Shown here in pieces: positions 1,454 through 11,333 of a stretch of DNA of 64,000 nt; within the stretch, counting starts at the first letter, position 1, and each line of letters opens with the position of its first letter. The translations under genes were made by a program, and so were the position numbers. The stretch spans positions 1-64,000 of IMG/VR virus record IMGVR_UViG_3300005613_000008; one strand, 5' to 3'. The notes under the pieces were generated by a model, which was not told the DNA's origin, did no database searches, and worked only from the letters and a program-made list of their open reading frames with translations. This stretch comes from a virus.

Positions 1454-1621
1454 ATGAACAAGTCCAATAGCTTTATCGCTTCTATTTCACTAACATGTGT
1501 AGCGATAAACATTGGGCTTTTTCTTTTTGCTGCTTTAACATACCAAAATGATTTACAACTTCTTACACTATTTAATGTTGCATGTTTTTCGTTGTATTTT
1601 ATAATAATGGATATTAAATAA
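1454..1621 (+). CDS. small two-TM membrane protein (55 aa, not in ORF track)
   Basis: Hand-translated MNKSNSFIASISLTCVAINIGLFLFAALTYQNDLQLLTLFNVACFSLYFIIMDIK; SD AGAGGG at 1441; its TAA overlaps the kinase ATG (TAATG). Confidence 0.7.
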   Translation: MNKSNSFIASISLTCVAINIGLFLFAALTYQNDLQLLTLFNVACFSLYFIIMDIK

Positions 1622-2781
1622 TGTATCAAAAATTTTGGAATCAATTCTTATCAGAAAGTGAGCCTACATTTAATTTAGATAACGGCTCTACTAGGCAAAA
1701 CCAACAGATAATAAACTTGCCAAAAAGTTCTGAAAAATCCGAGCCAAAAGAAGAGCCTGATATTTCCTCAGCAACAGGGGTGGGCGCTTATTTGCTGGAT
1801 AAAGGCTTCTATCCAGACAAAGAGCTTGGTAAAGGTTTGGATGGTATCGTTGTTGGAGCCACCAACAAAAAAACTGGACAAAAAGTCGCTGTAAAGTTTG
1901 TACGACAAACTACTAAAGGCGATATGAACAGAGAAGCTAAAAATTATAAAATAATAAAATTAAAAAGAGATAAACTTGGTGAGTTTGCTAAACATTTTCC
2001 TGTTGTTTATTCTTCTAAAATAGAACAAGTTCCTGCTGATGGGCAGCCTTTGGATGGGCACAAAATACCGACAGCAGTTATTGTAATGGAGCAGTTAGAG
2101 CAGCTTCCAAAAGAAGTAGCCTTGGGGCTGTTTCCAACATCAAGATTTACTAGTAGCCCAGAAGCTGTAAAAAGTCGAGACGAACGTATTTTTAAAAATG
2201 ATAAATTAATAGAAGGAATGGTATCCATGGCTTTTGCTTTTTTGGAAGATTCAAATGCTTGGACTCCGCATCTTTCTGTGGATGCTGAACTTGAATTGGT
2301 TCCACAAATTATAAGTAATTTTAAAAATCTTAAAATTTCTATTCAAGAACCTCCTGGGTGGGATAAAGTTTTCAAAAGCAAGCAATCACTTTTTTTGGCT
2401 ACTCTCTTCATGAAACTCACTTACGAGAAAATGGTTGAGATTGCTCCCAACGAAGATGAAAAGAGTCTAGTTGTAGATTACGAGCAAAACATAAAGAAGA
2501 TTCTAATGGAGATTTTCTACAAGGCTTATTCTCGTTCTGTTGTCTCAGGCGCTGTCCAAGGCGCGGCAGCACCATATTCTGCTCTACGAGGCATGGATCA
2601 GTTTTATGGTCAAGAGGGAGAGATAGAAAAGTCATTCCCAGAATCAATAAGCATTCGCAAAGCAATGAAGGCACTTGGAATGGAAGGCTTGAAGCCTTTT
2701 GATGTTCACTCAGGCAATGTCATGATGCGCCCTAAGACAAAAGAAATAGTTATTGTTGATCTTGGTAGGTTCAAGACATGA
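1621..2781 (+). CDS. protein-kinase-fold enzyme (Ser/Thr or APH/ABC1-like)
   Basis: Gly loop LGKGLDG, VAVK lysine, alphaC Glu (REAK), hinge IVMEQL, catalytic loop DVHSGN, DFG-equivalent DLG. Confidence 0.8.
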   Translation: MYQKFWNQFLSESEPTFNLDNGSTRQNQQIINLPKSSEKSEPKEEPDISSATGVGAYLLDKGFYPDKELGKGLDGIVVGATNKKTGQKVAVKFVRQTTKGDMNREAKNYKIIKLKRDKLGEFAKHFPVVYSSKIEQVPADGQPLDGHKIPTAVIVMEQLEQLPKEVALGLFPTSRFTSSPEAVKSRDERIFKNDKLIEGMVSMAFAFLEDSNAWTPHLSVDAELELVPQIISNFKNLKISIQEPPGWDKVFKSKQSLFLATLFMKLTYEKMVEIAPNEDEKSLVVDYEQNIKKILMEIFYKAYSRSVVSGAVQGAAAPYSALRGMDQFYGQEGEIEKSFPESISIRKAMKALGMEGLKPFDVHSGNVMMRPKTKEIVIVDLGRFKT

Positions 2782-3233
2782 AACAAATAATGAATGAATG
2801 GAGAGAATTCGCGACAAAACGTAACAAAAGAGAAGTTGGCTCTTGTGTCATTGTTGATAACAAAGATAGGGTACTTATTCTCAAAAGATCAGCCACAGAC
2901 GATTGGAAACCCGGTTGGTGGGATCTTCCGGGTGGTCACCTAGATGGCGATGAAAAACCAATTGAAGGTGCTGAGAGAGAGGCAAGAGAAGAGAGCGGCT
3001 TGACTGTGAGAAACTTACAAAAAATAGAAACCCTAAACATGGAAAGCATCTTCAAACACTTCTTTGTAACAAGAGATTGGGACGGAGTAGTGAGACTGGA
3101 GGAAAATCCCGAGACTGGCGAAGTCGAACACGACGATTACAAGTGGGTAACTTTAGAAGAGTTACAGGATCTTAAACAATCAATAGTCTTGGAAGCAATC
3201 GTAAAGAAGGGACTGAATATTGTTCGAGTATAA
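2778..3233 (+). CDS. Nudix hydrolase
   Basis: Nudix box GGHLDGDEKPIEGAEREAREESGL; EHDDYKWV C-terminal motif. Confidence 0.92.
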   Translation: MKQIMNEWREFATKRNKREVGSCVIVDNKDRVLILKRSATDDWKPGWWDLPGGHLDGDEKPIEGAEREAREESGLTVRNLQKIETLNMESIFKHFFVTRDWDGVVRLEENPETGEVEHDDYKWVTLEELQDLKQSIVLEAIVKKGLNIVRV

Positions 3234-3552
3234 TGCGATTTGTACTAGAGTTATTGATGGAGATACCATCGATGCGAGAGTAGACCTAGGTTTCTCTGTG
3301 TGGATAGAGTGCAGGGTGCGTTTAGAGGGCATAGATGCCCCGGAGACCCGTACAAAAAACTTAGAGGAAAAGCAGGCTGGCTTAAAAACCAAGGCTTTTC
3401 TACAGGCGATTATGGACGAATGCGGGCATAAGTTTGTTTTGAAATCTCATGGCGTAGGAAAGTATGGAAGGTGTTTGGGGACTATTTACGTTGACGGCGA
3501 GAGCATCAATGAGCGATTGCTTGCCGAAGGATTAGCCGAGGAATACAGGTGA
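3220..3552 (+). CDS. thermonuclease (SNase-like)
   Basis: RVIDGDTI, VRLEGIDAPETR, GKYGRCLG and INERLLAEGLA motifs; TTG start with SD. Confidence 0.9.
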   Translation: MFEYNAICTRVIDGDTIDARVDLGFSVWIECRVRLEGIDAPETRTKNLEEKQAGLKTKAFLQAIMDECGHKFVLKSHGVGKYGRCLGTIYVDGESINERLLAEGLAEEYR

Positions 3553-10275: not shown

Positions 10276-10303
10276 TTGACAACCAGTATTTCTGTGTTAT
10301 GAT
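10276..10303 (+). promoter_or_regulatory. sigma70-type promoter
   Basis: TTGACA (10276-81), 16 nt, TGn-TATGAT (10298-303). Confidence 0.72.
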
Positions 10304-10309
10304 CTTTAT

Positions 10310-10657
10310 ATGAAGAAGAGAAGATCAAAATATAAATACAAGAGTGTTGTAAATAAGTTATTAGATAATAATATTTTAAATGAAAGTAATCTAACATTCA
10401 TTGATAGTATGACTTTAGAAGATTTGATTGCTGTTAAGTTAGAGCTTTCTGCAAGACACATTAATAATAAACTTTATGCTTTTAATCTATTATCTAATAC
10501 TAATAGACTAGTTAAGGAAGCAATAATTAAATTTGCTATCAGTGCTACTCAATCTAAGGTGGATGCAGCTAGATTCCTTGGAATCGATTACGAAGGTCTG
10601 CGTAAGTTAGTAAATGAGTATGGCTTGCAGGATTATTTTAATGAAATTAATAATTGA
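10310..10657 (+). CDS. Fis/HTH_8-like DNA-binding protein
   Basis: C-terminal IKFAISATQSKVDAARFLGIDYEGLRKLVNEYG resembles the Fis/NtrC HTH. Confidence 0.7.
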   Translation: MKKRRSKYKYKSVVNKLLDNNILNESNLTFIDSMTLEDLIAVKLELSARHINNKLYAFNLLSNTNRLVKEAIIKFAISATQSKVDAARFLGIDYEGLRKLVNEYGLQDYFNEINN

Positions 10658-11333
10658 AAACTTCAGAAGATTCTTGACAGAACAAAATTTTATTTCTGAG
10701 TTTCCATTGGAACAAGATGAAGAAGGCAACATTATTCTTTATCATGTTTCTGGAGCAGAAGACATTGAAGAACTAGACCCTGATGTTGCTGCAAGGAATC
10801 TAAAGAACTACACCCAACAAGAATACAGAAGTTGGGACAGACCTAGGGTTTTCTTTTTTACTCGTCTCGGACAAGAAGACACGGGTATTGGAAGGATTGA
10901 TGGTGTCCCCTATCGTGTTAGGTTGAGACCAAATCAACTCTATCCAATTATAGATGACCCAGCAGGACTATCATCCAAGCAAGAACAACAGAATTGGATG
11001 GAAGCAAACATACCTGAGTTTGCAGAGAAGATGCAAGAAGCACAGAAGTGCTCGTCTTCAGAGCAATACAATCAGTGGCACATCTGCACCAAGACACCAG
11101 ATTCGGATGGACTCTACTACACAAATGAGCGCCACGCAGGCAAGACTCTGATGGTGGATAATCCTAAGTTCCATCATCTCAAACCAAACACATATGAAAT
11201 GGTTGCACAACTAGCAGAAGAACGTTATAATAGTATAGGATTCATTTACCCACAGAGCGGGGATCAAAACAATCAGATTGTTGCTTTGTGGCGTAAGGTT
11301 CCAGCAGAGAGATTAGAACAAGATTTCTACTAG
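10641..11333 (+). CDS. hypothetical protein, possible ADP-ribosyltransferase-like fold
   Basis: Start at ATG 10641 (MKLIIENFRRFLTE, SD GCAGGA); LYHVS...ELDP...RVFFFT resembles ART beta-strand motifs (weak). Confidence 0.6.
   Translation: MKLIIENFRRFLTEQNFISEFPLEQDEEGNIILYHVSGAEDIEELDPDVAARNLKNYTQQEYRSWDRPRVFFFTRLGQEDTGIGRIDGVPYRVRLRPNQLYPIIDDPAGLSSKQEQQNWMEANIPEFAEKMQEAQKCSSSEQYNQWHICTKTPDSDGLYYTNERHAGKTLMVDNPKFHHLKPNTYEMVAQLAEERYNSIGFIYPQSGDQNNQIVALWRKVPAERLEQDFY

Follow-up and report, generated by a model that had tools for sequence, protein, structure and literature searches.

The stretch of DNA analysed here, called the window below, comprises the first 64 kb (64,000 nucleotides) of the 127,323-bp virus record IMGVR_UViG_3300005613_000008, a genome of CheckV completeness ~70% that carries nearly all of its genes on the + strand. 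Four genes near the start of the window, encoding proteins of different kinds, begin with variants of the same short peptide, and two more genes with this N-terminal tag lie in the remainder of the record. The tag looks like a longer form of the signal that loads proteins into the head of phage T4, and therefore probably marks proteins that are injected with the DNA. The six tagged gene starts are as follows.

1621..1656, + strand: tag variant of 12 residues, MYQKFWNQFLSE, on a kinase-like protein (gene 1621-2781, 386 amino acids (aa))
2778..2819, + strand: tag variant of 14 residues, MKQIMNEWREFATK, with Lys for the terminal Glu, on a Nudix hydrolase (gene 2778-3233, 151 aa)
3549..3590, + strand: canonical tag MKLLMENWYRFLAE, GTG start, on a putative Pol-beta-type nucleotidyltransferase (gene 3549-5534, 661 aa)
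10641..10682, + strand: canonical tag MKLIIENFRRFLTE on a predicted ADP-ribosyltransferase (ART)-fold protein (gene 10641-11333, 230 aa)
80942, outside the window: tag MKVIMERWDRYVLE on a head-module protein encoded between the portal and protease genes
122461-123093 (gene), outside the window: tag MDKFINEWKEFLTE on a SAM-lyase homologue

Common to the six starts is a core, aromatic-x-x-aromatic-[L/V/A]-x-E, in which W or F at position i is followed by F or Y at i+3 in every case; five of the six tags close on FLSE, FLAE, FLTE, FLTE or VLE, and the sixth, that of the window's Nudix copy, on FATK. Orthologues of the Nudix protein begin MKxIMxEWRxFMTE, followed by RNNREVG, with the terminal Glu present, unlike the window copy. 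The start of the ART-like gene is placed at 10641 and not at the upstream ATG at 10614, because its orthologues begin at 10641; the tag ATG at 80942 lies four codons into an open reading frame (ORF) starting at 80930. An earlier note on the window, which proposed that a modular address tag loads unrelated enzymes into the phage head, had quoted six N-termini, namely the first three and the ART-like one listed above and two looser ones (taken up below); all six are in place, and so is the F-L-x-E ending that it reported for three of them.

The resemblance exceeds chance and is almost confined to N-termini, as a comparison over all N-termini, a check proposed in the earlier note, shows. Of the strict pattern [WF]xxF[LIV]xE, four occurrences lie within the first 20 residues of the 136 predicted proteins and a single one in all 38,859 residues beyond (Fisher 9e-5), and a wider pattern is observed five times against 0.38 in shuffles (shuffle maximum 3), both patterns having been defined after the instances were seen. 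A position-specific scoring matrix (PSSM) trained on 104 tags from elsewhere was also run over all six frames of the whole 127-kb genome: its four best matches all fall on start codons (3549, which scores highest, 10641, 122461 and 80942), and the Nudix start at 2778 ranks sixth. At a score of at least 18, the matrix picks out 262 of 30,780 start-codon positions in related loci and 18 of 558,179 other positions. The N-terminal enrichment is ~57-fold in this genome and ~260-fold in the related loci.

The residues that recur are those that matter in T4. The T4 internal proteins IPIII and IPII both start MKTYQEFIAE (read from the T4 genes), and this capsid targeting sequence (CTS) is cut by gp21 (PMC9026906). 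According to the review PMC9026906, the suppressor analysis of Mullaney and Black assigns targeting mainly to residues 4 and 7 (Tyr, Phe) and processing to 8 and 10 (Ile, Glu); with Asp in place of the Glu at position 10, the cut is stopped and targeting is unaffected. W8, F11, L12 and E14 of the 14-residue tag coincide with these four functional positions at identical spacing. The same core closes the propeptide, 65 residues long, of the T4 capsid protein gp23 (PMC5694885), which ends FGSFLTE/A (a slash marks the known or predicted cut here and below), and BLASTP aligns LLRE60/A of this phage's own capsid protein exactly on the T4 site FLTE65/A, so that the rule of the local protease is likely to be L-x-E, as at the tag ends. 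The T4 facts stated in the earlier note, among them the ejection of the ADP-ribosyltransferase Alt, hold when read against the T4 genes, PMC9026906 and PMC5694885.

The genome has the head genes that such a signal would serve: a T4-type portal (Pfam Portal_T4, E 4e-76), a major capsid protein (Pfam Gp23, E 3e-72) and a large terminase; a scaffold gene lies at 90366-91610. The gp21-like head protease, which was looked for specifically, is encoded at 81840-82439, outside the window (Pfam Peptidase_S77, E 1e-31). The N-terminus of this protease (genome positions 81840-81881), MKLLREYYELCEGG, resembles the tag MKLLMENWYRFLAEGG, and the protease may likewise reach the prohead by such an address; PMC9026906 suggests that gp21 itself is addressed by a propeptide. 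Among cultured phages, those closest in capsid protein are Flavobacterium phage immuto (48% identity), Microcystis phage Mel-JY01 and Rhodothermus phage RM378, which places the genome in the 'Far-T4' neighbourhood described in PMC4360716. That genomics paper mentions neither the tag nor internal proteins nor gp21; megablast found no cultured-phage relatives of the tagged region, and a literature search with the tag strings returned no relevant paper.

The tag is widespread. When MKxxxENWxxFLxE was back-translated to a DNA pattern and IMG/VR was scanned, at least 120 viral-contig stretches were found to encode it; in those listed, 140 ORFs carry the tag, which is encoded by 120 different DNA sequences, and the consensus of the tag is MKLLLENWRKFLNE. 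The 143 tagged sequences resolve into 75 cargo clusters unrelated by BLAST (BLASTP E<1e-5; at least 75 overall). Beyond residue 15 the proteins are unrelated, and in a 70-member alignment the only invariant columns are tag residues. About half of the loci have two or more tagged genes, and one has nine within 14 kb. On one IMG/VR contig (L118) six consecutive tagged genes, including those of an ART-PolyVal protein and a SAM-lyase-cluster member, occupy ~4 kb (about 7.6-11.1 kb); arrays of this sort recur in many loci. Locus searches with the 661-aa protein and with the Nudix protein returned one relative each. The protease is detected in 12 of 35 tag-bearing virus records, among them each of the five with a completeness of at least 90%. 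A scan of 596 Gb of prokaryote genomes with the DNA pattern of the tag finds 12 matches, six of them chance-like and six canonical, the canonical ones all in metagenome-assembled genomes (MAGs). One of these MAGs has two S77 protease genes, one of them on the contig that carries the tag, as might be expected of mis-binned phage contigs.

The tag also comes and goes as a unit, with the break between leader and cargo at the predicted cut site in three cargo families. The SAM-lyase homologue of this phage reads ...FLTE/SSISR. Its counterpart in the cultured Paraglaciecola phage PANV1, gp48, starts MKTFSEFLGE/SGLSRIK, the leader being a near copy of the T4 tag (five genes neighbouring gp48 also begin with T4-type leaders of 10-11 residues, the tagged PANV1 products being gp41, 42, 44, 45, 48 and 50); the relative in Mel-JY01 starts MQFKQYILGE/SSLSRI, and that in CPt10 has a longer leader ending NFNE/SSLSRL. 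PANV1, CPt10 and Mel-JY01 alike encode the head protease. Orthologues of the nucleotidyltransferase carry MKLLxENWRxFLxE, MSFHSQWRKFLLTE, MKFQARWRRFLTE or MIKVKIKKSLAE as leaders (in one the tag is followed by a 60-residue insert), and whatever the leader, GGN[VI]F stands directly after the Glu in nearly all full-length orthologues aligned. When 1.8 billion representatives were searched with a profile of the 230-aa ART-like family, the search brought up distant members with this tag, with a MKITKxQLKQIIKEEL-like leader, with a short T4-like leader or with none (MKLYHFS...), and others that are embedded in proteins of 2,200-5,000 aa. By the comparison of sequences, then, the tag behaves as a separable module in all three families. 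The ART-like relatives with a MKITKxQLKQIIKEEL-like leader in the tag's place raise the possibility that the two address tags are interchangeable.

The best explanation of these observations is that the shared N-terminus is a T4-type capsid targeting sequence, here 12-14 residues long, the form characteristic of uncultured marine T4-like phages; we put the probability of this reading at about three in four. The address tag of the earlier note is thus supported from several sides: by the match to T4 spacing, the presence of the protease, the L-x-E of the capsid protein, the 75 cargo clusters, the PANV1 leader, the promoter-like motif (described below) ahead of three tagged genes, and cargo of types suited to early takeover of the host or anti-defence. 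By analogy with T4, the tag would fold as a short amphipathic helix whose aromatic pair (W/F at i, F/Y at i+3) would bind the scaffolding core while the prohead is built; any protein bearing it would therefore be enclosed in the head, where the gp21-type protease would cut after the closing [L/I/V]-x-Glu and free the mature enzyme in the capsid, to exit with the DNA at the next infection. Packaging, core binding, cleavage and injection are all steps that we infer. AlphaFold2 (AF2) models have a tag helix at residues 3-13 of the 661-aa protein (where residues 1-28 have pLDDT <50) and at residues 2-15 of the 230-aa protein, in neither case packed on the domain.

The proteins behind the tags differ in how readily they are identified. 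The Nudix hydrolase scores 73.6 bits with Pfam NUDIX, and the SAM-lyase homologue 49 bits with PF23780, whose gathering score is 28 bits. The window's copy of the kinase-like protein scores 19.9 bits with Pfam Pkinase, and a tagged orthologue in another locus (L075) scores 33.0 bits against a cut-off of 31.7 bits; the orthologue in the syntenic relative L007 starts MYNKFWNQFLLE. The earlier note had labelled the 661-aa protein a nucleotidyltransferase-ligase, and of this label the first half stands better than the second. The N-terminal half has the GS...DxD nucleotidyltransferase motif (it matches hG[GS]x9-13Dh[DE]h, and LGSVGKKAKSGDIDLAV is nearly invariant), and the AF2 model (pLDDT 72) has matches of Z 6-7 to TUTases, GLD-2 and Pol X, and with Pol mu and Pol beta a Foldseek probability of 1.0 at E about 0.02; the evidence is consistent with a Pol-beta-type nucleotidyltransferase fold, if weakly. 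The ligase half is unproven: the C-terminal half offers a single LigD match at Z 5.1 (residues 385-480) and the string EKLAGQN, and no Pfam or PDB profile match.

The 230-aa protein is, on present indications, suggestive of an ART fold. Its AF2 model (pLDDT 86) gives mostly ART-fold proteins among the 50 VIA-align matches listed, all with Z below 8, led by VPA0770 (Z 7.4), ParT (Z 7.2) and diphtheria toxin (Z 6.2), with RES toxins, cholix, PARPs, DarT, Tpt1 and the anti-CRISPR 6kyf among the others; Foldseek returns nothing significant (E-values of 0.1 or higher), and sequence and profile searches of the PDB with the 230-aa and 661-aa proteins returned nothing useful. The tag persists even in orthologues of only about 40% identity, with a linker behind it that varies in length, and the family has Y34, H35, R69, D80, G88, P107 and Y230 as invariant residues. 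Tagged proteins elsewhere match the Pfam families of SAM lyase, ART-PolyVal (one at 47 bits), Zeta-toxin-type P-loop kinases, Pkinase, GNAT and tRNA-ligase-type 2',3'-phosphodiesterase; most tagged cargo families have no Pfam match, and PADLOC gives only weak kinase matches and one Nudix match. The types of cargo that can be recognised suggest a pre-made kit for host takeover or anti-defence.

Some observations attach to the nucleotidyltransferase itself. Its orthologues end in a conserved basic Cys-containing tail, ...EEAKKWSRKYKTSINCSSPKGFSQKQYCKRQKRGGSYKS. In the window a tail of the EEAKKWSRKYKTSINCSSPKGFSQKQYCKRQKRGGSYKS type lies in the next frame (ORF 5455-5622; 5520-5622), after an apparent short out-of-frame deletion, and the gene stops at 5534; an error of assembly, truncation of the tail or a frameshift site could each account for it. 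Short homologues that consist of the nucleotidyltransferase alone also have this basic Cys tail at their end. In two homologues (P0112 and P0122) the nucleotidyltransferase domain is fused to a cytidylyltransferase-like domain with HxGH (GGFKPPHRGH), and a very similar HxGH domain (PGAFKPPHLGH) is encoded in the window as a separate gene at 8714-9493; the 661-aa nucleotidyltransferase and the separate HxGH-domain protein may work together.

If the tag loads proteins into the prohead, it does not follow that they leave it: they might act there, as accessories of the core or scaffold, as proteins that condense DNA or as maturation factors. We regard this as unlikely. The recognisable cargo is enzymatic and has molecules of the host as its targets (SAM lyase, ART fold, protein kinase, Zeta-type kinase, Nudix), and in T4 the CTS-bearing proteins and Alt are ejected into the cell; set against this are the tag-like start of the protease itself, the majority of cargo families, which have no known function, and the position of tagged gene 80942 between portal and protease, which is where T4 has its core proteins gp67 and gp68. 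The 80942 head-module protein may well be a core component.

An amphipathic helix is able to bind many things, and the leader might be recognised by some other common partner, for example a modifying enzyme of the kind that acts on ribosomally synthesized and post-translationally modified peptides (RiPPs), a chaperone or a host factor, with the capsid uninvolved. This too has little to recommend it, and is hard to square with a leader that ends in the protease's L-x-E rule and repeats the mutationally tested residues of the T4 CTS. Searches of this genome and of five complete tag-bearing genomes found no Radical_SAM domain (the head protease is in all five), no unbiased search for other co-occurring genes having been made.

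The conserved 5' segment might instead act as nucleic acid, either as a translation enhancer or as a recombination linker comparable to PeSL cassettes; gene shuffling mediated by PeSL is documented in T4-type phages (PMC2839356), and the tagged genes do occur in arrays and are swapped between relatives. The codons speak otherwise. The 120 distinct tag DNAs use all synonymous codons (all six for Leu12, and the two for Asn7 and for Phe11 about evenly), while positions left free by the search pattern are still conserved as amino acids (L/I/M/F at 3-5, R/K/N at 9-10), so that selection is on the peptide and not on the DNA or RNA, and this explanation is disfavoured to the point of being very improbable. 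That the resemblance is chance or a leftover of common ancestry of the genes, the motif being short and many phage genes beginning Met-Lys, is refuted by the counts, that is, by the N-terminal enrichment here and in related loci, the 75 unrelated clusters and the mere 12 prokaryote matches.

The timing of expression bears on whether the tagged proteins could be packaged. The T4 late promoter, TATAAATA, was tried as a late signal and rejected: it occurs twice forward and five times reverse in the genome and is not enriched. Another string, ACTATTTA, occurs 22 times forward and once in reverse, mostly 23-65 nucleotides (nt) upstream of structural genes; nine of these sites, all on the + strand, lie in the window, where 2.95 are expected on both strands.

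1567..1574, + strand: ACTATTTA, 54 nt upstream of the tagged kinase gene at 1621; conserved in L007 at 7723
3481..3488, + strand: ACTATTTA, 68 nt upstream of the tagged nucleotidyltransferase gene at 3549
7702, 16055, 39755, 42720, 53758, 60385 and 60634, + strand: the other window sites of ACTATTTA; 13 more lie downstream

It also stands 23 nt before tagged gene 122461. From this location ACTATTTA is a candidate late promoter, differing from that of T4. Gene order in L007 is instructive in another way: the kinase, nucleotidyltransferase and ART-like genes are kept there with their tags, a different tagged gene (334 aa) takes the place of the Nudix and nuclease genes between kinase and nucleotidyltransferase, and a further tagged gene (625 aa) lies upstream.

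Several points weigh against a T4-type targeting sequence and have to be set beside the evidence for one. The Nudix copy of the window lacks the terminal Glu, and might thus be targeted and left uncleaved, or not be targeted at all. The tagged genes are far from the head module and stand among early-looking genes. The late-promoter role of ACTATTTA is one that we infer; there is no ACTATTTA close to 10641, and its enrichment ahead of the 121 tagged ORFs of other loci is a mild ~3.7-fold, the main upstream motif found there being the ribosome-site region of one family. To our knowledge every T4-like phage has a gp21-type protease, which makes its co-occurrence with the tag necessary and not specific. 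A canonical tagged SAM-lyase homologue is present in a 2.8-Mb MAG record that has no detectable protease. Finally, the literature search found no virion proteome, N-terminal sequencing or injection data for this phage or for any cultured phage with this tag, and the PANV1 paper is without mass spectrometry.

The MAG record in question (L139, CP070664.1) is labelled candidate division WOR-3; its tagged gene, at 1747-2391 with the N-terminus MKTIFENWNNFLNE, adjoins genes for a DNA methyltransferase and a MoxR/CobS-like ATPase. The case may be one of phage DNA joined into an assembly, or a real exception.

Two further features of the window had been counted by the earlier note as looser instances of the tag.

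8465..8704, + strand: 79-aa coiled-coil protein with the start MSKWHDFLDG; tag-like, membership not established
7744..8193, + strand: MSTKDWKNRELPTLLTE at a possible internal start, in frame with the surrounding HExxH protein gene 7324-8193; not a tag

Neither belongs with the six as matters stand. W4, F7 and L8 of MSKWHDFLDG match T4 positions, residue 10 being Gly and not Glu; the orthologue starts MSKWRDFLDG, and 8465 is not among the PSSM matches. The peptide MSTKDWKNRELPTLLTE is internal and contains L-T-E, but lacks the aromatic pair at tag spacing. Within this HExxH gene there is a ACTATTTA at 7702, and AAAGGAG lies 11 nt before the in-frame ATG at 7744; all three elements recur in L007 (13249 to 13291), a hint of a separate acidic C-terminal protein of 149 aa made from 7744; the conservation over 7702-7746 could instead reflect conserved amino acids.

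The second leader, MKITKxQLKQIIKEEL, occurs on about eight genes of this genome, mostly in the head module, and related stretches are found in the window.

66531, 70664, 72032, 72893, about 74866, 82432, 83103 and 114892, outside the window: MKITKxQLKQIIKEEL-type leaders
8120-8190, in the window: MKITKxQLKQIIKEEL-type stretch at a C-terminus, QIRQLIRKLVKEAMIKK
9490-10275, in the window: MKITKxQLKQIIKEEL-type stretch, internal, LRQIIREFLKHELKE

In T4 only a handful of injected proteins are known. Injected proteins act before any phage gene is expressed, and so form the first line against restriction, BREX-type and abortive-infection defences. The broader notion that the 14-residue tag is an 'inject me' label, marking hundreds of otherwise unannotatable families as pre-packaged effectors of the first seconds of infection and perhaps interchangeable with the MKITKxQLKQIIKEEL leader class, could in our judgement fall either way. 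With a conserved tag to search for, a large part of the 'dark matter' genes in abundant marine T4-like phages would become a functional class with defined limits; if the notion is true, a simple motif search would list, for one of the major groups of ocean viruses, the injected enzymes of anti-defence and takeover. The tag points to specific new candidates for counter-defence enzymes, and would offer a natural alternative for loading foreign proteins into T4-type capsids. That T4-like phages load varied proteins by the T4 mechanism is already suggested in PMC9026906; what is new relative to the literature searched is the form with 14 residues, the fact that it is nearly identical in many uncultured marine phages, the cargo of enzymes and the scale.

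The closest known system is the CTS of T4 IPI, IPII and IPIII (Mullaney and Black 1996, as cited in PMC9026906). The likenesses are an extreme N-terminal tag on otherwise unrelated proteins, an aromatic-x-x-aromatic-L/I-x-Glu core, a genome that also encodes a gp21-type protease, a comparable sequence at the maturation site of the capsid protein, and the location of tagged genes in variable regions; the swap of tagged genes in L007 likewise recalls the variable internal-protein loci of T-even phages. The differences are of length (12-14 residues against 10), of the first aromatic residue (Trp here, Tyr in T4), of host phage (a distant 'Far-T4' marine lineage) and of cargo, which here consists mostly of enzymes of 100-900 aa and in T4 of small basic proteins. 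The system described here, with at least 75 cargo clusters and up to nine tagged genes per locus, is known from sequence alone.

T4 Alt, an ejection protein that gp21 processes at both ends, at ITE-6 and LTE-619 (PMC5694885; also PMC9026906), provides the precedent for packaging a large enzyme: it is an ART-fold enzyme that travels in a T4-type head and is cut at [I/L]-x-E, as the 230-aa protein may be. Its six-residue propeptide has no aromatic pair, whereas the 230-aa protein, which has no sequence match to Alt, carries the full tag. The ejection proteins of the giant phages SPN3US, phiKZ and 201phi2-1 have long N-terminal propeptides (PMC5694885) that are removed by a protease and are thought to direct proteins into the prohead, and some paralogues share identical N-termini; these propeptides are typically longer than 100 residues and are cut at A/S/G-x-E, and there is no short tag on unrelated proteins. 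The polyvalent proteins of phages and conjugative elements (ART-PolyVal, PF18760) bring together the same kinds of effector domain for delivery with DNA, but do so in one giant fusion, where the phages considered here have separate small genes, each with what is probably its own address tag.

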